Below are positions 3,616 through 62,245 of a stretch of DNA of 64,000 nt, piece after piece. The position numbers and the translations under genes were made by a program. This DNA comes from a virus (Duplodnaviria > Caudoviricetes): the IMG/VR virus record IMGVR_UViG_3300013121_000026, positions 32,001 through 96,000 of that record. One strand, written 5' to 3'. The notes beneath the pieces were generated by a model. It was given only the letters and a program-made list of their open reading frames with translations, was not told where the DNA came from and ran no database searches. Each line of letters starts with the position of its first letter. Position 1 is the stretch's first letter.

Positions 3616-3689
3616 GGACCCTTAGCTTAAAAGTAGAGCAGGAGTCTTTTAAACTCTTGGCGACGGAGCGTTACCGTCAGGGTCTACCA
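3616..3689 (+). tRNA. tRNA-Lys(TTT), T-loop AGCGTTA
   Basis: GGACCCT/AGGGTCT acceptor, loop CTTTTAA, ACCA end. Confidence 0.85.
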
Positions 3690-3696
3690 ATTTAAT

Positions 3697-3773
3697 GCTG
3701 CTTAGGTAGATGTGGTCACTACGTTAGTTTGAAGCACTAAAGAACTCAGTTCGATTCTTGAGAGGCAGCACCA
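3697..3773 (+). tRNA. tRNA-Phe(GAA)
   Basis: GCTGCTT/AGGCAGC acceptor, TTAGT-TTGAAGC-ACTAA, ACCA end. Confidence 0.85.
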
Positions 3774-6263: not shown

Positions 6264-6346
6264 CTCAAACATCCAGAAAACAAAAAAATTAAAAAAACAG
6301 ACACTATACAAATAGGGTTTGTTAGAAGTAGAATTAAAAAGAATAT

Positions 6347-6420
6347 TTCGGAATCGTCTAATGGTAGGATCTCTGGCTCTGAACCAGAGGGTATTTGTTC
6401 GAATCAAATTTCCGAAGCCA
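6347..6420 (+). tRNA. tRNA-Gln(CTG)
   Basis: TTCGGAA/TTCCGAA acceptor, TCTGG-CTCTGAA-CCAGA, GCCA end. Confidence 0.9.
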
Positions 6421-6425
6421 ATAAT

Positions 6426-6501
6426 GCAAGCTAGGCCGATCTAGTGATGGCGACAGACTGTGGATCTGTTGAGGCTGGAGCGTAACCAGCAGCTTGTACC
6501 A
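6426..6501 (+). tRNA. tRNA-His(GTG), alphaproteobacterial type
   Basis: G1-U72, A73, T at position -1; loop CTGTGGA; T-loop AGCGTAA. Confidence 0.88.
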
Positions 6502-6507
6502 AAATAT

Positions 6508-6583
6508 TGCGGGTTGGAGGAGAAGATGCCTTGACTGGTTCATACCCAGTAGACACGGGAGCAACGGCCCGTACCCGCTTCCA
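6508..6583 (+). tRNA. tRNA-Met(CAT), initiator-like 1:72 mismatch
   Basis: TGCGGGT/ACCCGCT acceptor, ACTGG-TTCATAC-CCAGT, 8-nt T-loop AGCAACGG, CCA end. Confidence 0.75.
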
Positions 6584-6587
6584 ATTT

Positions 6588-6645
6588 AGGATGCCTGCAG
6601 CAACTCAAAAAATCTTTCAGCAAAAAAGAGCAAAGGTGCATCCTG
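6588..6645 (+). ncRNA. CNGCA stem-loop RNA unit A (Y-RNA-like candidate)
   Basis: AGGATGC-CTG-CAGCA...GCATCCT-G; internal TCTTT-CAGCAAA-AAAGA hairpin. Confidence 0.7.
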
Positions 6646-6654
6646 TTAAATTTA

Positions 6655-6774
6655 AGGCTATCTACAGCAACTAATTTGGGTCTTGTATACCCGTGGTCGT
6701 TGGTTCGAAGCCAACCTAGGTTATTTGTTAACCTAGTAGCTCAGTTTGGTAGAGCACGTAAAATGTATAGCCTG
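6655..6774 (+). ncRNA. CNGCA stem-loop RNA unit B containing a circularly permuted tRNA (YrlA-like architecture)
   Basis: AGGCTAT-CTA-CAGCA...ATAGCCT-G enclosing anticodon arm, T-arm, looped acceptor stem and D-arm in that order. Confidence 0.8.
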
Positions 6775-6785
6775 TTTTAATATAT

Positions 6786-6860
6786 ACGAGTGTAGCTTAG
6801 TCTGGTCTAAAGCACTGGTCTCCAAAACCAGCAACGTGGGTTCGAATCCTACCTCTCGTG
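6786..6860 (+). tRNA. tRNA-Trp(CCA)
   Basis: CTGGT-CTCCAAA-ACCAG anticodon arm, canonical D- and T-arms, G73. Confidence 0.9.
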
Positions 6861-6861
6861 C

Positions 6862-6936
6862 GCCAACATAGCTTAATGTTAGAGCTCCTTCATGGTAAGA
6901 AGGCAGATGTGAGTTAAACTCTCACTGTTGGCTCCA
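6862..6936 (+). tRNA. tRNA-Thr(GGT)
   Basis: GCCAACA/TGTTGGC acceptor, loop ATGGTAA, T-loop TTAAACT, TCCA end. Confidence 0.85.
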
Positions 6937-6943
6937 GTTTTTT

Positions 6944-7035
6944 GGAAGAATGGCCGAGAGGTTTATGGCAGCAGTTTGCTAAATTGTCGTACCTTGAAAA
7001 GGGTACCGTGAGTTCGAATCTCACTTCTTCCACCA
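6944..7035 (+). tRNA. tRNA-Ser(GCT)
   Basis: GGAAGAA/TTCTTCC acceptor, loop TTGCTAA, long variable arm, ACCA end. Confidence 0.9.
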
Positions 7036-7042
7036 AAATTAT

Positions 7043-7078
7043 AGAGGGCATAGCTGTTAAAACTATGCCCTCTCCTTT
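7043..7078 (+). terminator. Hairpin after the tRNA block, possible terminator
   Basis: AGAGGGCATAG/CTATGCCCTCT 11-bp stem with a short T tail. Confidence 0.45.
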
Positions 7079-10319: not shown

Positions 10320-10405
10320 GGAGGGTAGCACTCAATGGTGGGTAACTGGTCTTGAAAACCAGGCTGACCGAAAGGTCAAGGGTTCGATTCCTTTGCCCTC
10401 CTCCA
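10320..10405 (+). tRNA. tRNA-Ser(TGA)
   Basis: GGAGGGT/GCCCTCC acceptor, loop CTTGAAA, long variable arm. Confidence 0.9.
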
Positions 10406-13345: not shown

Positions 13346-13834
13346 AGGATATGTTCAGCACTTAATTAATATCCGTGGTAGTTGTAGTTTTAACTACACA
13401 AGCTGTTTGAGCTAAGAAAAACTAGTTGGGTGCCTGCGAATACGGCACGATATCCTGATTAAAGAGTTTTAAGAATCCCTACAGCAATCAATAAATTTTC
13501 ATTTGTAGAAAAAGAAGTGGATTCTGTTTATTTTGGAATGTTTACTGCACTCTAAATCCTTTCAGAACAAATTGGGAGTTGGAGACTCCCAAACATTCCG
13601 GTAAAATACAAGATTAAATACAGCAAACAAAAATATTTGGAATCCCTATAAAGGGGAAGGCTTTAGAATAAAGGCATTTGTTCTAAAGGATGGTCAAAAG
13701 TTCGAGGACTTTTATAATAACCTGAACCCGTAAAACGGATGGTGTACCATAATATATGCATTTAATCTGTAACTAAAATTTAAGTTTCATTTCCGCAACC
13801 ATAACAGCTTTGTACGCTCAAAAACATGAAACTG
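13346..13834 (+). ncRNA. Tandem array of five CNGCA stem-loop RNA units (Y-RNA-like candidates)
   Basis: Units 13346-13457, 13472-13526, 13535-13600, 13611-13769 and 13783-13834; each has a different but perfectly paired 7-9 bp stem, CNGCA at nt 11-15 and a 3' G. Confidence 0.8.
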
Positions 13835-29653: not shown

Positions 29654-30576
29654 AATATGTACTTTTGATATTTATTCTGTATAATGGAACTGAACACAAA
29701 ATAGGGCACCTTGGGGGATTTAGTTCCCCCCAAGCGTGTCAGGCATTTAGTAATTCGATTTATAGAAAGATATATCATGAAGACACGATCCTTGATGGCA
29801 AGAAAATTAGGTTTGAATGCATCCAAAGAGATTGATGATCACGCATTAGATTCTATTCTGAACAAACTCTACAAGTATGGTTATCTATATTTTGCAGGTA
29901 TTGACCTATTCTTAGATCGAATTATTATTAATGGACATTTTATATAATGAAAAACTACCGATTGATCATTAACAAAGAAAACGCCAAATATCTAATTAAG
30001 ATAAATGAAGTCTTTTTTATTATTGACGCTGATATGAAAACAACAGATCAAATACTGCTTAATATTCATTCGTTTAAAAAATGTAATGACGTTTATCCGT
30101 GGTTTCGGTTCTGTTCTTTCGGTAATTTTTTATATGAAGACGCTCCTTTCAATGCAGCAATACCCCCCGGCAGGAGTTTTTTGTAATGAGCTATCTCCAA
30201 CTTCTTTACTTAGAAAAAACAAGAAAAGAATTTGAAAATTCGGATAAATTCAGGCTTGAAAAAATATTCACTTTCTGCTATAAATTTGAAGATATTATTG
30301 ATGAGAGTTATGATTATATTCCTCACCAAAACGCAGCATTAGCCGTGCTTGCAGACATGGATGACTCTCACTCTCCTAATGATATGTTTATATAACAATG
30401 ACCATACCTTATAATTCTTCTTATATTGTTAGGGATAATGTAAATAATATTCTATACAAGTCTAACACTGTTAATATTATTCTTAGGTATATATACCACC
30501 GCCCTTATTATTTTGGTGATTATCACAAAGATTATTTTACAATTGGAAATCTTCTTAGCGTATACAGGGACATGAC

Positions 30577-31011
30577 ATGGATATAATTGTTGACATTGAC
30601 GGAACGATTGCTAACGCAGATTGGCGTCAACATCATCTTCTTGTAAAACCAAAGAACTGGACGGGATTCTGGAAGGACATGGAAAATGATGGTCCTCACA
30701 CAGACATCATTTGGCTCGTAAAACAGTTGCATTCGACAGGCAATCGCATTATCATGTGTACTGGTCGACAGGAACAACATCGAGAGCCTACGACAAAATG
30801 GCTGGACAAATACGAGATTCCTTATTCTGCTATTTACATGAGGGAAACAGGCGATCATCGTGATGACAGCATTGTTAAAGTTGAGTTGATTAATAGAATT
30901 AGAGAGGATGGTTATGATCCATATTTAGTTCTTGAAGATCGCAACAGAGTTGTTAAGGCGTTTCGTGATATTGGTTTAAGAGTTCTACAAGTAAATTATG
31001 GAGATTTCTAA
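30577..31011 (+). CDS. HAD phosphatase like the PseT (polynucleotide kinase) 3'-phosphatase domain, stand-alone
   Basis: DIDGT, CTGR, MR..GD.R.D..VK, EDR..VV. Confidence 0.85.
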   Translation: MDIIVDIDGTIANADWRQHHLLVKPKNWTGFWKDMENDGPHTDIIWLVKQLHSTGNRIIMCTGRQEQHREPTTKWLDKYEIPYSAIYMRETGDHRDDSIVKVELINRIREDGYDPYLVLEDRNRVVKAFRDIGLRVLQVNYGDF

Positions 31012-31370
31012 TGGAACTGTTTAACATTCTAATCGCTGCTTATTTGCTTTGGATTCCAATTGCTATCTACAAAACAATGGTGGATTATTACAAAGTCTAT
31101 CAATTTGTCGAAGATAGCAAAGACGAGTTCCCGTATTTGTCTGCGGATATTTTTCGCGAGATCGAAAACTCGTCTATGATTTACTATTTTTTCAGAACAG
31201 TAACATTTTCCAGAAGTGCGTCACATTTTATCGAACCAATCAACATGATTATTAATAAAAAGTACAGTGTGGATGCATTAAGAAAAGATATTAAAATTAG
31301 CAAGGAAATTTTGGCTAAAATTGAAAAAGCACTCCAAACCAAACCAGTTGACAATAACGACGAAAAATAG
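31011..31370 (+). CDS. Hypothetical membrane protein
   Basis: N-terminal transmembrane helix. Confidence 0.55.
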   Translation: MELFNILIAAYLLWIPIAIYKTMVDYYKVYQFVEDSKDEFPYLSADIFREIENSSMIYYFFRTVTFSRSASHFIEPINMIINKKYSVDALRKDIKISKEILAKIEKALQTKPVDNNDEK

Positions 31371-31455
31371 TATAAATATAACGTTATGTTCAGTACTGTG
31401 GGAAGTACAGGCCGACAACGCTAGGACAAGGTTCGAATCCAAAACATAACAATTG

Positions 31456-31743
31456 ATATTCAGAGACGATTTACAGTAGGTATTTCGGACGTGGGGGCGG
31501 TTCCCACCACCTCCACCAAGAGTAGATCTAAGCAGGAAACTGCTAACAAAACTGACCATGGAACGGTTGATCTACTCTTGATGGGGGGGTGATATAGGAT
31601 CGACGAGTATTGAGAGTAAATTTGAGAATATCTCGGTGGTTGAGCAACCAGATTATAAATGGCAACGACAACGTTGACTATGCACTAGCAGCTTAAGCTA
31701 GGCGGGGTTAGTTGGGTTCCTAGCAACAGAATACCCAACGCCA
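31456..31743 (+). ncRNA. ssrA: Two-piece (permuted) tmRNA
   Basis: Acceptor piece ending GTGGG-GGCGGTT-CCCAC-CACCTCC-ACCA at 31518 precedes the coding piece GGGGGTG.. at 31585 (G3-U70); tag GNDNVDYALAA* at 31661-31696. Confidence 0.92.
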
Positions 31744-31768
31744 TTTTTATTTTAACAAAAAGTGAATT

Positions 31769-31996
31769 ATGAGTGAATTAAATTTTCCAATACAGACGTT
31801 TTTATTAGACATTGAAAAAATAGTAGCAGGTGGTGATACGTATATTAATGCTATCATTCATTGGTGTGAAAAAAAGAACGTAGAAATAGAGTACATTGCG
31901 CAACTTATTAATAGTAATTCCACCCTCAAATCAAAATTGCAATTGGAAGCTGAAAATTTGAATTTTTTACCCAAAAGCATCCGCCTTCCACTATAA
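31769..31996 (+). CDS. 33: Late-promoter transcription co-activator gp33
   Basis: YINAIIHWCE...E.E.IA.LI....LKSKLQLEAENLNFL. Confidence 0.82.
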   Translation: MSELNFPIQTFLLDIEKIVAGGDTYINAIIHWCEKKNVEIEYIAQLINSNSTLKSKLQLEAENLNFLPKSIRLPL

Positions 31997-32023
31997 ATAC
32001 AGAGTATAACAAAGGATGGCGGA

Positions 32024-32485
32024 ATGGAAATAACCTTTACAGGAAAAGCAAAAAACGTTTCCAGAAAACTGTATACACAAGCTATTAATTTTTATAGCGA
32101 GAAACTGCTATCGCCCAAACTAAGGCCGAATGTTTGTATTAACATCGTTTTTGAGGCTGGATTAACAAAACCACCAAGTAAAATTTATGGCTATTGTGAC
32201 TTTGATGATTTTGGTGGTCCCCCAAGAATGTTTCGTCTGCACATTGATGCAGGTCTTAGTAAAAGAATGTCATTATTAACTTTAGCCCACGAAATGACCC
32301 ACATGAAACAGTATGCGATTGGCGAGCTAAAGGATTATGTTAAATACCCAAATAAGATTAAATGGAAGGGTGAAATAATAGAAAAAGACTCTTCTGAATA
32401 CTGGGATGCTCCATGGGAAATTGAAGCATTAGGGCGAGAACAAGGGTTATATAATATGTTCAAATGGCACCTAAAAAATGACTAA
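32024..32485 (+). CDS. Zincin-type metallopeptidase
   Basis: TLAHEMTHMKQY, YWDAPWEIEA; late promoter at 31992-31999. Confidence 0.8.
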   Translation: MEITFTGKAKNVSRKLYTQAINFYSEKLLSPKLRPNVCINIVFEAGLTKPPSKIYGYCDFDDFGGPPRMFRLHIDAGLSKRMSLLTLAHEMTHMKQYAIGELKDYVKYPNKIKWKGEIIEKDSSEYWDAPWEIEALGREQGLYNMFKWHLKND

Positions 32486-32786
32486 TGAGGAATTATTAGA
32501 CGAATTAATCCGCAGAATGGATAAGAACGAAATTCCACTTAGAGACATTTTACAATTAATAGATGATTGGGATCTTGAGCAAGAATTTAGTGATCGTGGT
32601 CTTAACGATCAAGACAATATTAACAACATGACACGAGAACAAATTGAACAGTATTTAAAAGAAAATTTTAAGAAGGAAGACATTGACATACTAATTGAAA
32701 ACGTGTATTATGATTATGTTGAAAATTCCAAGCATTTAACTAAGTCGTTGGATAGCTTGTTTCTAACAATTAACAAACAAATATGA
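32478..32786 (+). CDS. Hypothetical protein
   Basis: 102-aa ORF coupled to its neighbours. Confidence 0.55.
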   Translation: MTNEELLDELIRRMDKNEIPLRDILQLIDDWDLEQEFSDRGLNDQDNINNMTREQIEQYLKENFKKEDIDILIENVYYDYVENSKHLTKSLDSLFLTINKQI

Positions 32787-54420: not shown

Positions 54421-57400
54421 ATGCCAATTAAAACAGATTTGTCAGTAAGACCATACGGTGATGATTATAATGAGGACAAGGATTTTTATAAGATCCTGTT
54501 TCAGCCTGGTGTAACTGTACAAACTCGAGAACTAAACCAGCTTCAGACAATTCTTCAAAAGCAAATTGAACGATTTGGTGATCACGTATTTACTACTGGA
54601 ACATTGGTTTCCGGATGTAACTTTCAGTTCTATAATCCAATTCCCTATATTAAAATTAGAGACATTACTAACGAAGGTGAAGTTTCTATTCCGTATCGTT
54701 ATGTTAACTATAATGTAATCAACGAAACAACTGGGTTGATTGCTCAGGTTACGGATTATCAAAACGGTTATGAATCAACATCACCTGATCTTAAGACACT
54801 GTATATCACCTATAAGAACTTTGGTACTAATGGTGTTACTACTGCGTTTTCATCAGGCGATGTTCTAAAAGTTTACAATCCAATCATCAATGGCATTGAA
54901 AAAGTTACTATTAATAATGGTGGCATAGGGTTTTCTAATACAGATTCCTTGATAGCCCTGCCGCAGTTGCTAGTCTCAGTATCCGATGGAACATTGGTCG
55001 TTGGCGATTACTTAAACAATGGCAAATATGCTAATGTTGAGATCATGGCGTTGGATAGCTCAACTTATGCTAATAATGGTTTCATTATTGCAACAGTTAG
55101 ACCACAGTCTGTAGACCTAGCTAATGTTTCTTGTAACTCAAGTTATTGGACACTGTCAGCAGGCGAAAACATTACTAATCCTGGAGCAAATGTTACAGCG
55201 TATGTGATTAGAACATTCGGTGCTAATTTCAGAGGCAAAATTACTACTGACTCGATTGGTGTTGTTACAAGCATTTCAATCTTAGACAAGGGCGCAGGAT
55301 ATACTCAGGCACCTTATTTTACAGTCAGATCTGTTAATAACGTTAGTGGCTATACGACACTTTCTTTAACTGGTAGAAATTATCTAGACAAGATTGTTGT
55401 TTCAACCCTGCCAAATAGCGTTGGCAATGGTTATGCATTTGGTATTACAGAAGGCGTTATCTATCAAAAGGGTTATTTCCTAAGATCAGTTCCTCAAAAG
55501 ATAATCGTTAGCAAGTATGACATCCTTCCAGACAATGTGGCTGTGGGGTTTGTTACTAATGAAGATATTGTTAATCCGTCTATGGATGACAGTTTGTATG
55601 ATAATGCTAATGAAACAAAAAATTATCAGGCACCTGGTGCAGATCGTCTTAGATTAATCCCACAATTAAAGCTGGTTGATTCTGATCAGGCAACAAACAA
55701 TTCAGAATTCTTTACTATTTGTGAGTGGAAAGAGGGCAAGCCTTACACTCAAAAACAAACCACTACCTATAATGTCCTTGGAGACGAAATCAGCAGAAGA
55801 ACATCTGAGGCATCAGGTGACTTTGTTACTGATCCATTCCTTGTTACAACAAGAGCTCCAGCAAATACAGACAATGAAGGAAAATACTACAATCTAGTTG
55901 TTGATCCGGGCATTGCTTATATTGATGGCGTAAGAATTTCTACTCAGGCTAACTATAATTTGGATGTTGAGAAGGGAATTAATACCGCAACGACCAATAA
56001 CCATACAGTTTCACTTAATTACGGAAACTATGTAATGGTTAATGAACTGGGCGGTAGCTTTGCTTTTAATCTTGGTGATCAGGTATCCCTGTATAATTCC
56101 GCTAAGGGATTTCTATCAAACACCTCATTAATTCAAGCTCAAAATACAGATCCAGTTGGTACTGCAATTGGTACAGCAAATATTAGAAGTATTATGCATG
56201 ACGATGGTATGCCCGGTCAGAATACTGCTACCTATAGACTGTATCTGTTTAATGTTCAGATGAGTTCAGGTAAGAACTTTAGAGACGTCAAGTCTGTTTA
56301 TTACAATGGCACTAAGAAGGGTATTGCTGATATCGTTCTGGAAGTTGATCCAACTTCTGGAAGCTCCCAAGCATTCATTTATGATACCAATACTACTGGA
56401 TTGCTGTTTGATGCAGGTGTTGAAAGTCTAAAGAATGCAAATACAGTCGTTTATGCATATAGAACAAATGATACAACCGTAACAACAGCTAACACTGGTA
56501 TTTTAACAAAGGATATTAGTGGAACTCCCAGCGAAATATTCCCATATAGTGGAAATCTTTCAAGCACCCAGCTAAAGGAAATAATTGTTGTTCCTTTAAC
56601 TGTTGATTTTGTTTCGGATACATCATCAACTGGTACTGTTAGCGTTGGAGCAACTTCAGCAAACGTTACTGGTAGCGGTACTACATTCCTTTCAGACTAC
56701 GTTGTTGGAGATTATTTAACTGTTACGGCTAATTCAACTGGTGGTTACCATCTAGGCAAGGTAAAGAGTGTTGTTAACAATACCCTGATCGTGATGGACG
56801 CAAATTGTGGATTCACAAATGCATCTTCATTAGTCTACAGAACGTTCCCCAAGGATGTTCCGGTTCCTTTCGGATATAGATCAGGATTAAGTGCTAACGT
56901 TAATGTTAACCAAAACATTCTTTCAATGAATTTTGGTAAGGCATTTAGTTTCTCAACGGCTAATTCCGTTTCACTATCAGTTAATATACAGAGAAATGAT
57001 CCGTCTCAGACAACCAAGACAGCAAATCGAAACAAGTTTGTTAAGCTAAGACTAGCAAACAATGATGCTAATACAGTTGGTCCATGGTGTGTTGGTGTTC
57101 CTGATGTGTTTAGATTAAAGGGTGTTTATGTTGGTAGTTCAACCGTAACAAATGCCGGTTCAAATTACATCAGCAACTTCTATGTTGATCACAATCAGAA
57201 CCCAGATTTTTATAATCTGAGCTGGCTATATAAGAAGCCAAGCAGTTCATTATCATTAACATCATCTGATTACTTGCTGTTACAGTTTGATTACTTCACA
57301 AGTTCAGGTGCGGGTTTCTATGACACAATTAGTTACATTTCATCCAACTCAAATACTGTATTTGAAGTTGATAGTACTGATTTGGATTCACTTGGCGCTA

Positions 57401-59624: not shown

Positions 59625-62245
59625 AATCATTTAATTTTGCTCAGACATTTGTTATCGATCCTGCAATAGGAAACAAGATCACTGTTAATCTAACAGGAAT
59701 TGATTTGTTCTGGATGTATAAGCCAGACTATCAAAATAACATTTCTGGATTAATGGGACCGGGCATAACAATCTACGTGGTTAACACTAAAGATGACCTA
59801 CCGGACATTTCTGGGGAAACATTTGCTAATTTTGCTCGTGTTGAGTGGGGAAACATCATTACCAGCTCAGACGGTAGTGTAGCAACTAGATTTAGATTTA
59901 ATAAGCCGCTAGCAGTAAATCCAGGAAAGAAGTATGCAATCCTAGTTTCATATGATGGCAATGAAACATTCTTCCCGTGGGTAGCAAAGCGTGGAATGAA
60001 GATTACCAATTCAACTAATGTATTTCCGGGTAACTTTGATTTTATTGGTAACTATTATGAGTCAGTAATTACTGATGGACAAGTTGGATCCTTAGAGCCG
60101 ATTCAAAGCTGGAGAGCATTAACGGATACCCAATTAAAGTTCCGTGTATACATTGCTAGATACATGATTAACGGAGTGCCGGTAAGCAACAGCACAGTTG
60201 ATCCGTCGCAATGGTTTAACTTGCATGGTACCAGCCCATTCTCGTCAGTTGATGGTAATAACGTTATCTTTAGTTATCCATCTCCATGCATTGAAAACAT
60301 CAGCTTTGATCTAAACCAAAGTACTGTTCAGAGTTTTGTTGGTTCTCAAAGAGTATATCAAAACACAGTATTTTATCCTGGTGGATATCAAAATGGTTCT
60401 TCATACGTAACCGTATCTGCGGCTAATAGTGGACCTAACAGTACCTTGTTAATAGCAAATACTAAGCTACCAAATGGAGCTAATTTTAAGTGGTCTGATA
60501 TTTTTAGTGACTATGCTGGAACTAAGTATGTGACTGTATTTGATACAGAACTTACAAACATTCGAAAAGTTCAAAGCATTATTTCCAATACTGTCATTCA
60601 AGTAGATGAACCATTTACTTTTACTAATACTATTTCAAAATTCTTGATTAGCCCGATAGCAACAATTGATAGCTTCAATAGTCATTCACCAGAAGGTAAA
60701 TCAGAAGCATTAATGTTCCTGACTCACAGCAATGCTAATGATTCAGTTAGATTTGTTAATAACGTTATTGAAGCTGTTACTGTGACAGCAGGTGGTTTAG
60801 ATTATAGCAACAATGACGTTCTGTATGTAACAGGATTTGAATATGTTGCTGATAAGGTAACTACTGGTTATTTTGCAGTTGGTAATATCGTTACAAATAG
60901 CATTGGTGGTATTTCCGAAGTATATCTTAGCAATACAGGATGCGGCTTTACAAATTCAAGCGCATTGCATCTAGTTATTGCTAATAGCATCTTTGATCCG
61001 GGTGGTCTAACAAACTCAACAGCTAATACTAGCTTGGGTTCAGGTGCTACTTTTGAATACACAATAGGAGCAACATTACAGTCTGAATTATCCAACAACA
61101 TCTTCAAAGATTGTGAAGTGTTGAACTTAGATTTGCATGATGTTACTCCGTTCTTTAATATTACTTCGCCCGTCAATACAACACAACAGTTTTACTTGAA
61201 TTCTCAGTATTACATTCAGGATGATGAAGATGTTATCCTGGGTTCAATTTCATATGTTAATCCAAATACATCACAAATAGTTCTGGAATTAAACAAACGA
61301 AAGAACATTGTTGCAGATAAGATTCCATGCTTTGTTTCCTACTCAAATGAGTTTGGCGTAAAATACAGCAATGGTGCAACAAATGATAAGGTTAGTGCGT
61401 TAAATATCTATTCAAATAATTACATGCTGGGCATTTCAATCTCGTCAAATAACGACTTTGTAATGCCAACTATTAATTCGACTGCATCAGTTGAGTTCGG
61501 CAAGTATGTTATCAATAATGACTATACTAATGAACATACCAATCAGGGTAATGCATTTGCTAAGCATCTAACCACTCTAGTTAACTTTGATAGATTTAGT
61601 GAAGACGTCGTAGTTTATTTGGATGCTTACAGACCAGTTGATACTGATATTCAAGTGTATGCTAGAATTCAAAACAATCAGGATACCCAGGCATTTGATG
61701 ATGAAGATTGGACCCGCTTGGAGATAATTGATGGAGTCAATATTTACAGTAGCTCCAGCAAGGAAGATGACTATATTGAATTAACCTATGGTTTCCAGGG
61801 TCAGCCAAATACGTCAATAACTTTGGATGGTACTATTACGACAACAAACAATAGCTCAACATTAACTGGATCAAACACAACATTCTCGGACGATCTAGCT
61901 AACAATGATGTTATTAAGATTTACGATCCATACTTTCCAAATACTAACTTTATGGTTGCTTCTGTTAATAACATTACCAACAATACTTCACTAACTATTG
62001 ATACTTCAGTATTGTCTACGATTAATACAGCATTGGTAGGAAATGGATTAAAGGTAGATTTGATGGGATATAAGCATCAGGCATTCAATAACATTCAGTT
62101 TGACAACGTTGTTAGATACTACAATGAGTCAATGGTTAAGTTTGATGGATATGACAAACTGCAATTGAAAGTAGTTTTCCTCTCTTCGAACCTATTAAAC
62201 ATTCCTAAGGTTCATAATATTAAGTTGGCGGGTGTCTCAGCATAA
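59621..62245 (+). CDS. Virion structural protein (VrlC-like C-terminal part)
   Basis: AQTF.I, LTGIDLF, AT.F.F..P, V.LDAYRP..TDI.VY, LK.V..S.....P. Confidence 0.65.
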   Translation: MKSFNFAQTFVIDPAIGNKITVNLTGIDLFWMYKPDYQNNISGLMGPGITIYVVNTKDDLPDISGETFANFARVEWGNIITSSDGSVATRFRFNKPLAVNPGKKYAILVSYDGNETFFPWVAKRGMKITNSTNVFPGNFDFIGNYYESVITDGQVGSLEPIQSWRALTDTQLKFRVYIARYMINGVPVSNSTVDPSQWFNLHGTSPFSSVDGNNVIFSYPSPCIENISFDLNQSTVQSFVGSQRVYQNTVFYPGGYQNGSSYVTVSAANSGPNSTLLIANTKLPNGANFKWSDIFSDYAGTKYVTVFDTELTNIRKVQSIISNTVIQVDEPFTFTNTISKFLISPIATIDSFNSHSPEGKSEALMFLTHSNANDSVRFVNNVIEAVTVTAGGLDYSNNDVLYVTGFEYVADKVTTGYFAVGNIVTNSIGGISEVYLSNTGCGFTNSSALHLVIANSIFDPGGLTNSTANTSLGSGATFEYTIGATLQSELSNNIFKDCEVLNLDLHDVTPFFNITSPVNTTQQFYLNSQYYIQDDEDVILGSISYVNPNTSQIVLELNKRKNIVADKIPCFVSYSNEFGVKYSNGATNDKVSALNIYSNNYMLGISISSNNDFVMPTINSTASVEFGKYVINNDYTNEHTNQGNAFAKHLTTLVNFDRFSEDVVVYLDAYRPVDTDIQVYARIQNNQDTQAFDDEDWTRLEIIDGVNIYSSSSKEDDYIELTYGFQGQPNTSITLDGTITTTNNSSTLTGSNTTFSDDLANNDVIKIYDPYFPNTNFMVASVNNITNNTSLTIDTSVLSTINTALVGNGLKVDLMGYKHQAFNNIQFDNVVRYYNESMVKFDGYDKLQLKVVFLSSNLLNIPKVHNIKLAGVSA

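Follow-up and report, generated by a model that had tools for sequence, protein, structure and literature searches.

Ro60, together with the Y RNAs that accompany it, has long posed a puzzle in RNA biology and autoimmunity. In bacteria, Y RNAs tether Ro60 to an exonuclease, and YrlB, like the element described here, is a short version that lacks the tRNA-like body. The RNAs reported by Chen et al. (2014; PMC4201824) all lie no more than 4 kb from the protein gene. The Ro60 of Thermus phage phiLo is reported to bind two Y-like RNAs (Yrl1/Yrl2) encoded upstream of its gene, and a complex of this Ro60, Y-like RNA and host PNPase has been reported (PMC12135203); a survey of jumbo phages gives TROVE proteins with a tRNA-like partner a passing mention only (PMC7824862). 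The Class I RNAs of Dictyostelium, which are reported to be restricted to dictyostelids, have their own upstream promoter element, and the sole direct protein partner named for them is the RRM protein Rnp1A/Cibp (PMC7919456). Here we analyse unit A, an element of 58 nucleotides (nt) at positions 6588-6645 on the plus strand of a 64,000-nt stretch of phage DNA (the window; positions 32,001 to 96,000 of IMG/VR record IMGVR_UViG_3300013121_000026), together with its candidate protein partner, a DUF2828/DUF7788 protein encoded 7.2 kb downstream on the same strand.

The source is a complete T4-like phage genome of 160,761 bp with terminal repeats, which contains more than 20 tRNA genes and one permuted transfer-messenger RNA (tmRNA). 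Sequence comparisons indicate that unit A is a real member of a widespread RNA family whose members share one conserved handle. This handle consists of a 7-bp end-joining stem, in which G2:C and U5:A are kept, a motif N-U-N-CAGCAA after the 5' arm and an unpaired 3' G. No description of the family was found in the literature or in Rfam, and the handle RNAs of DUF2828-encoding phages are apparently undescribed so far. We think it probable that unit A is a trans-acting, Y-RNA-like partner of a Ro60-fold protein, excised from a tRNA precursor and bearing an anticodon-arm look-alike.

A conserved handle beyond chance

Unit A is laid out as follows.

6588-6645, plus strand: unit A, the whole handle RNA gene, 58 nt, bounded by the stem and the trailing G
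6588-6594, plus strand: 5' arm AGGATGC, the perfect complement of 6638-6644
6595-6597, plus strand: linker CTG, the start of the single-stranded handle motif at 6595-6604 (CUG linker and CAGCAAC)
6598-6604, plus strand: motif CAGCAAC, read directly, followed by an A-rich linker and then the hairpin
6613-6629, plus strand: cargo hairpin TCTTT-CAGCAAA-AAAGA, a 5-bp stem with a 7-nt loop, present in the minimum free energy (MFE) fold, with a second linker 3' of it
6638-6644, plus strand: 3' arm GCATCCT, followed by the conserved unpaired G at 6645

All seven pairs of the terminal stem are Watson-Crick pairs, and U9, CAGCAA and the 3' G are all intact. Neither ARAGORN nor the Rfam tRNA model (RF00005) called a cloverleaf at 6588-6645, and when ten related loci were scanned with Rfam no unit appeared at any non-tRNA gathering score. 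The strict geometry (seven Watson-Crick pairs, 3 nt and CNGCA, with the complementary arm and a G downstream) occurs 15 times in the genome, compared with 2.96 ± 1.6 times in 100 dinucleotide shuffles, and 7 of the 15 occurrences fall within two plus-strand clusters, at 6588-6774 and 13346-13834. A covariance model built from 14 units of other IMG/VR contigs and containing no sequence of this genome (R2) was run over all 160.8 kb and placed unit A second (38.1 bits, E = 1.6e-6), behind a unit at 13472-13526 (46.8 bits); the third match (21 bits) lies inside coding sequence. Another model, R1, scored unit A at 57.5 bits. Geometry or model matches at 55975-56101 and 60936-60993 lie inside long open reading frames (ORFs) and were taken as chance.

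A DNA similarity search against deposited phages gave matches confined to tRNA genes, and there was therefore no close relative against which unit A could be aligned. The major capsid protein, used as another route to relatives, led mostly to short fragments, with five long contigs usable. Two MAFFT alignments with gaps inside the 3' arm (A1 and A2) were dropped, and the clean-ended A3 and A5 fed the models. In an alignment of 51 distinct model hits, which was fitted to the model and hence leans towards its stem, 97.5% of the terminal-stem cells are paired, compared with 22-42% in slid controls. Both sides change at six of the seven pairs, G2:C being invariant and U5:A nearly so. In the single-stranded part of the handle, family alignments show C11, G13, C14 and A15 to be invariant and U9 and A16 to be conserved at 90% or more. 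As a stem-free test, we searched IMG/VR with the 5' half alone, TTAGGATNNNTTCAGCAA, and found that 130 of the 145 matches have a perfect complementary 7-nt arm followed by G, 40-260 nt downstream.

An inverted repeat that arose by chance in an AT-rich spacer would fit the fold energy of unit A, which is not significant. Set against this origin are the geometry count (15 versus 2.96), the arm and G that accompany 130 of 145 5'-half matches, and the R2 score of 38.1 bits, which together leave it with next to no probability.

Units among tRNA genes and around DUF2828

The surroundings of unit A in the window comprise the following features.

6347-7073, plus strand: RNA operon with tRNA-Gln, a His-like gene, a CAU-like gene, unit A, unit B, tRNA-Trp, tRNA-Thr, tRNA-Ser and a strong hairpin (7043-7073)
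6508-6583, plus strand: CAU-like tRNA gene, the upstream neighbour, with a cloverleaf MFE fold and CCA at 6581-6583, ending 4 nt before unit A
6655-6774, plus strand: unit B, starting 9 nt downstream of unit A, the same handle around a cargo that resembles a permuted tRNA (YrlA-like), found by the strict scan
13346-13457, 13472-13526, 13535-13600, 13611-13769 and 13783-13834, plus strand: five arrayed units that all have the same handle, found by the strict scan, directly upstream of the DUF2828 gene
13845-15221, plus strand: gene with DUF2828 and DUF7788 (Pfam; PHROG 850 'RNA-binding protein'), encoding the proposed protein partner

Given its tight spacing (spacers of at most 11 nt), a single promoter-like site at 6305-6334, the sole one on the plus strand near it, and the end hairpin at 7043-7073, the block at 6347-7073 is packed like one RNA operon. 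Two of its tRNA-shaped genes are irregular. The CAU-like gene, called by neither ARAGORN nor Rfam, has an unusual T-loop (8 nt) and a 1:72 mismatch; the His-GUG-like gene at 6426-6498, which also has an unusual T-loop, scores 39.7 bits in Rfam and has no ARAGORN call. Unit B matches Rfam YrlA at 44.4 bits (E = 6e-9, local search), under the gathering score of 69. In the array, the last unit (13783-13834) closes with G13834, where the DUF2828 gene's GGAG ribosome-binding site begins, and this unit could influence translation of the DUF2828 protein in cis.

To place unit A among its relatives, we compared 19 IMG/VR loci with DUF2828 homologues (45-56% identity). Units lie on the strand of the gene in 19 of 19 loci, as do 52 of 53 R1 hits, and many stand 4-6 kb upstream of it between tRNA genes; locus L004, for instance, has the order tRNA-Asn, unit, tRNA-Glu, unit, tRNA-Pro. 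Among 380 distinct units, 144 begin within 15 nt of a preceding tRNA 3' end (mode 5-6 nt), and in 142 a tRNA follows at a distance of up to 15 nt (mode 8-9 nt); the spacers between units and tRNAs are U-rich. Four loci (L008, L010, L012 and L015) have units beside the DUF2828 gene and no ARAGORN-called tRNA gene, which argues that the units are not a by-product of tRNA operons.

The fixed distances to flanking tRNAs and the U-rich spacers on either side would also suit units that serve as structural punctuation of the tRNA precursor, guiding or insulating processing by RNase E and RNase P, without a function as free RNAs or a connection to the Ro60-like protein. We consider such a role very unlikely. 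Arrays stand beside DUF2828 without a called tRNA in the four loci just named, no units occur in the tRNA clusters of the DUF2828-negative phages T4, RB69, 44RR, RB43 and T5, and both the conservation of single-stranded CAGCAA and the anticodon-arm cargo would be superfluous.

Deposited phages, among them the cultured KVP40 and Aeh1, place the units farther still from the protein gene. A KVP40 unit (176664-176722) lies in a tRNA cluster 7 kb from the DUF2828 gene, the Aeh1 units (within 111337-111515) lie in a tRNA cluster 10.7 kb from it, and the units detected in Ci1 and DLP_6 are 8-14 kb away, so that in these four phages every detected unit is 7-14 kb off the gene. These distances, and the location in tRNA clusters, exclude cis-regulation of DUF2828 as a general role. 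An earlier note, made from the sequence of the window, had argued that a unit inside a tRNA operon cannot be a cis-regulator of DUF2828, that an orphan unit suggests action in trans and that such units probably become free small RNAs by processing. The first two arguments hold up in the relatives: the KVP40 and Aeh1 units are likewise in tRNA clusters, and far units are the rule in KVP40, Aeh1, Ci1 and DLP_6. The same note had expected relatives without DUF2828 to lack the units too, and this is what we found, with R2 matches in 9 of 10 DUF2828-positive and 0 of 10 DUF2828-negative complete genomes (Fisher p = 1.2e-4, kinship ignored). The positives with a match are Aeh1, KVP40, Ci1, BUCT-ZZ01, RSP15, DLP_6 and three complete IMG/VR genomes; the negatives are T4, RB69, 44RR2.8t, RB43, P-SSM2, T5, a T4-like IMG/VR genome of 188 kb and three small phages with a chance match to the 5' pattern alone. 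Aeh1, chosen in the expectation that it would be negative, turned out to have both the protein and the RNA. Contig fragments with units and no DUF2828 were counted as uninformative.

In the regions of the KVP40 and Aeh1 annotations that were read, the units are absent, and only gaps or doubtful small ORFs are shown. KVP40 has further unannotated units (2146-2233 and 782-897 of L233), and directly after a unit a tRNA missing from its annotation (L233 1382-1453, minus strand, about 176581-176652 of KVP40) scores 57.7 bits with Rfam tRNA. In Citrobacter phage Ci1 (L228 3494-3755), a perfect handle unit (3624-3755) comes after a 'tRNA-Pseudo-AAC' of the annotation and overlaps a minus-strand hypothetical coding sequence that is probably mis-called.

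A predicted Ro60-like fold for the candidate partner

The protein encoded at 13845-15221 was modelled with AlphaFold (AF2) from a 12-sequence alignment (predicted local distance difference test 77.7; predicted template modelling score 0.73). In a Foldseek search of this model against the PDB, the top 13 matches were all Ro60/TROVE proteins, led by the Ro60 of Thermus phage phiLo (9kop/9l5y; E = 3e-10, template modelling score 0.62) and including Xenopus and human Ro60 and Deinococcus Rsr, with bare vWA domains coming after them. The protein has no Pfam TROVE match, and a protein atlas search returned its own family only. With a match in fold and none in sequence, its kinship to Ro60 is at the fold level only. 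On this model, DUF2828/DUF7788 is a second, sequence-unrelated branch of Ro60-fold proteins, and DUF2828-type proteins are encoded in at least 707 deposited phage genomes.

Ten neighbouring ORFs were scanned and included no RNA ligase or kinase gene. In Serratia phage BF (L232 1-3006), an annotated RNA ligase gene stands upstream of the DUF2828 gene, with one small ORF in between. The DUF2828 homologue of G020 (the record of L060) is in two pieces about 0.9 kb apart, at 30184-30582 and 31500-32561, an arrangement that suggests an inserted element (an intron, intein or endonuclease cassette).

An anticodon-arm look-alike as cargo

The units fall into two main size classes, of 50-66 nt (189 distinct units) and about 110-120 nt. 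Folded alone, cargos of the short class most commonly form a 5-bp stem (94 cases) and a 7-nt loop (99 of 179), and the loops are rich in the residues of anticodon loops: C32 in 68%, U33 in 89%, A37 in 81% and A38 in 72%. The full Y32-U33-R37 signature is present in 63 of the 189 minimal units, compared with 0.4 (maximum 2) in shuffled cargos. The proposal of the earlier note that the cargo has the dimensions of an anticodon arm is thus borne out by the 5-bp, 7-nt-loop hairpin of unit A and by the signature across the family. Cargo stems also covary (for example TTCAA/TTGAA, TTAGA/TCTAA and TTTCA/TGAAA). The loop of unit A, CAGCAAA, is identical at six of seven positions to that of the phage tRNA-Cys(GCA), CUGCAAA, with A replacing U33.

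Two narrower readings of the cargo were rejected. The first was that each mimic copies one specific tRNA: stem identity is 6.0 of 10 to tRNAs with the same anticodon and 5.9 of 10 to other tRNAs, and this equal likeness points to a generic anticodon-arm shape. The second was that the loop holds another copy of the handle motif. CNGCAA occurs in the cargo of 11 of 189 minimal units, compared with 3.1 in shuffles, and in about 4 of these 11, as in unit A, it sits inside a Cys-type CUGCAAA hairpin loop; given this setting, we take the second CAGCAA of unit A as a Cys-like anticodon loop. A third type of cargo is an ordinary, non-permuted tRNA-like sequence inside the handle, seen at L001 2124-2227 and L004 5858-5956 (Rfam tRNA matches at L001 2147-2217, 63.4 bits, and L004 5882-5942, 32.5 bits).

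Unit A might instead be an anticodon-arm decoy in its own right, or imitate a substrate of a tRNA enzyme, and act independently of the Ro60-like protein, with a handle that merely stabilizes its ends. The family-wide anticodon-loop signature and the 6/7 identity to the phage tRNA-Cys loop would both be expected of a decoy. Conservation of the handle (G2:C, U5:A, U9, CAGCAA and the 3' G), however, exceeds what end stabilization needs, the units strictly co-occur with DUF2828, one handle carries very different cargos, among them permuted tRNA bodies (about 110-120 nt), and the mimic stems are no closer to same-anticodon tRNAs than to others (6.0 versus 5.9 of 10). A decoy independent of the protein thus seems unlikely to us.

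Proposed role of the handle RNAs

As a partner of the Ro60-like protein, unit A would encode a small non-coding RNA some 58-65 nt long. This RNA would be transcribed with the adjoining tRNAs as one precursor and released through cuts in the short AU-rich spacers, which resemble RNase E sites. The DUF2828/DUF7788 protein would then recognize the handle in trans, in a Y-RNA-like pairing, and the resulting particle would display the anticodon-arm look-alike, with its Cys-GCA-like loop and A33. At the most speculative step, this display may act as bait or adaptor for anticodon-reading enzymes in a contest over tRNAs; a role in steering an RNA surveillance particle of the Ro60/exonuclease type is a speculative alternative.

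Several observations weigh against this proposal. Sequence and profile searches of the DUF2828 protein against PDB sequences found no solved relative. The handle motif differs from that of the known bacterial system, in that unit A has CAGCAAC and 6588-6645 contains no CGAA, whereas YrlA has GNCGAA(N)G. Serratia phage BF is a DUF2828-positive complete genome in which an R2 search of the whole record gave no match; its handle RNAs may be divergent. The 20 genomes of the presence and absence comparison are not phylogenetically independent. Unit A itself has an A at loop position 33, found in only 4 of 99 seven-base loops, and four of the five pairs in its hairpin stem are A-U and the fifth is C-G, so that it is an atypical and possibly degenerate member of the family. 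Its fold energy alone is ordinary (z = -1.09) and uninformative, and the case for unit A therefore rests on motif geometry and on comparison with relatives.

The same features could describe a copy of some working minimal unit, 13472-13526 for example, that is decaying and, though recognizable, out of use: A33 in the loop, a weak, mostly A-U hairpin, the MFE z of -1.09 and an R2 score of 38.1 bits versus 46.8 for 13472-13526. The handle of unit A is, however, intact at every conserved position, and in its position within the operon and its distances to its neighbours it agrees with the units of relatives, which makes a decaying copy an improbable account, by our estimate about as improbable as tRNA punctuation.

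Our results show that a second branch of the Ro60 fold travels with its own RNA family, one that is unannotated in the regions read of KVP40 and Aeh1. The orphan position of unit A is an argument for action in trans, and among minimal units a bare anticodon-arm look-alike is a frequent cargo. That Ro60-like particles present pieces of tRNA during infection is a hypothesis now testable in laboratory phage-host pairs. For genome annotation, the handle is also a simple signature by which a missing class of genes can be recognized.

A bolder and more doubtful idea is that the handle RNAs are baits, parts of tRNAs mounted on a protein, that capture, sense or redirect host enzymes reading the anticodon loop, and that the likeness to Class I RNAs could mean that the same pairing exists in eukaryotes. 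The targets could be, for example, tRNA-cutting defence nucleases or modification enzymes, which would make this a new kind of phage counter-defence particle, and some other units would present a whole permuted tRNA body.

Other RNA features of the genome

The permuted, two-piece tmRNA lies at 31344-31787 (111.8 bits with Rfam RF04321 and 112.5 bits with alpha_tmRNA; tag peptide GNDNVDYALAA), and tmRNAs of the permuted type are also present in relatives L002 and L017. A tRNA-Sec-like match at 10320-10401 (41.2 bits, compared with a gathering score of 47) has no ARAGORN call.

Comparison with known RNA systems

The handle RNAs share several features with YrlA/YrlB and their protein Ro60/Rsr (RF02553; PMC4201824). 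In both, the paired 5' and 3' ends form a stem where the protein-binding site lies (predicted for the handle), the RNAs are on the same strand as the gene for a Ro60-fold protein, several RNAs accompany one protein and the cargo mimics parts of tRNAs. They differ in that the 7-bp end stem of unit A is shorter than in classical Y RNAs, and the handle partner falls in Pfam DUF2828/DUF7788, not in TROVE as for YrlA. Unit A has no tRNA-like D and T arms; its cargo is a single 17-nt hairpin, an isolated anticodon arm that is lacking in YrlA. It lies 7.2 kb from the protein gene, beyond the 4 kb of Chen et al. (PMC4201824), and a 301-nt search gave no match of unit A to RF02553 even at E up to 1.

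The phiLo system and the protein of the window have in common a phage-encoded Ro60 fold and phage-encoded RNAs, the partnership being predicted here. In phiLo the RNAs are encoded immediately upstream of the protein gene and contain a CGAA motif, whereas handle units are also found in tRNA operons, have another motif and carry anticodon arms or permuted tRNAs as cargo. Taken together, the handle RNAs look like Ro60-bound Y RNAs in function, yet depart from YrlA and Y RNAs in several of the tests that define them.

The T4 RNAs rnaC and rnaD (species 1 and 2) are small, stable, non-tRNA RNAs within a tRNA cluster, directly after a tRNA gene, a location shared with unit A. T4 has no DUF2828 homologue, no R1 match at the tRNA-cluster locus and no R2 match in the whole record. 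We considered rnaC and rnaD as candidate handle RNAs and, finding no handle by eye and no R1 or R2 match, assigned them to a different RNA family.

A very similar layout is that of the Dictyostelium Class I RNAs (RF01414; PMC7919456). Like unit A, these RNAs are 42-65 nt long, with a short covarying end-joining stem and a variable middle; their 5' arm is followed at once by a conserved, unpaired motif whose last bases are CAGCAA, and their 3' end is C-U-G. The Rfam model RF01414 aligns unit A from end to end at 22.2 bits, under its gathering score of 41.5, with a 1-nt deletion needed within the motif of 11 nt, and the phage handle stem has one extra outer pair. As judged from sequence and predicted pairing, unit A and the Class I RNAs are strikingly close in architecture, a likeness of layout that we draw with homology left aside.
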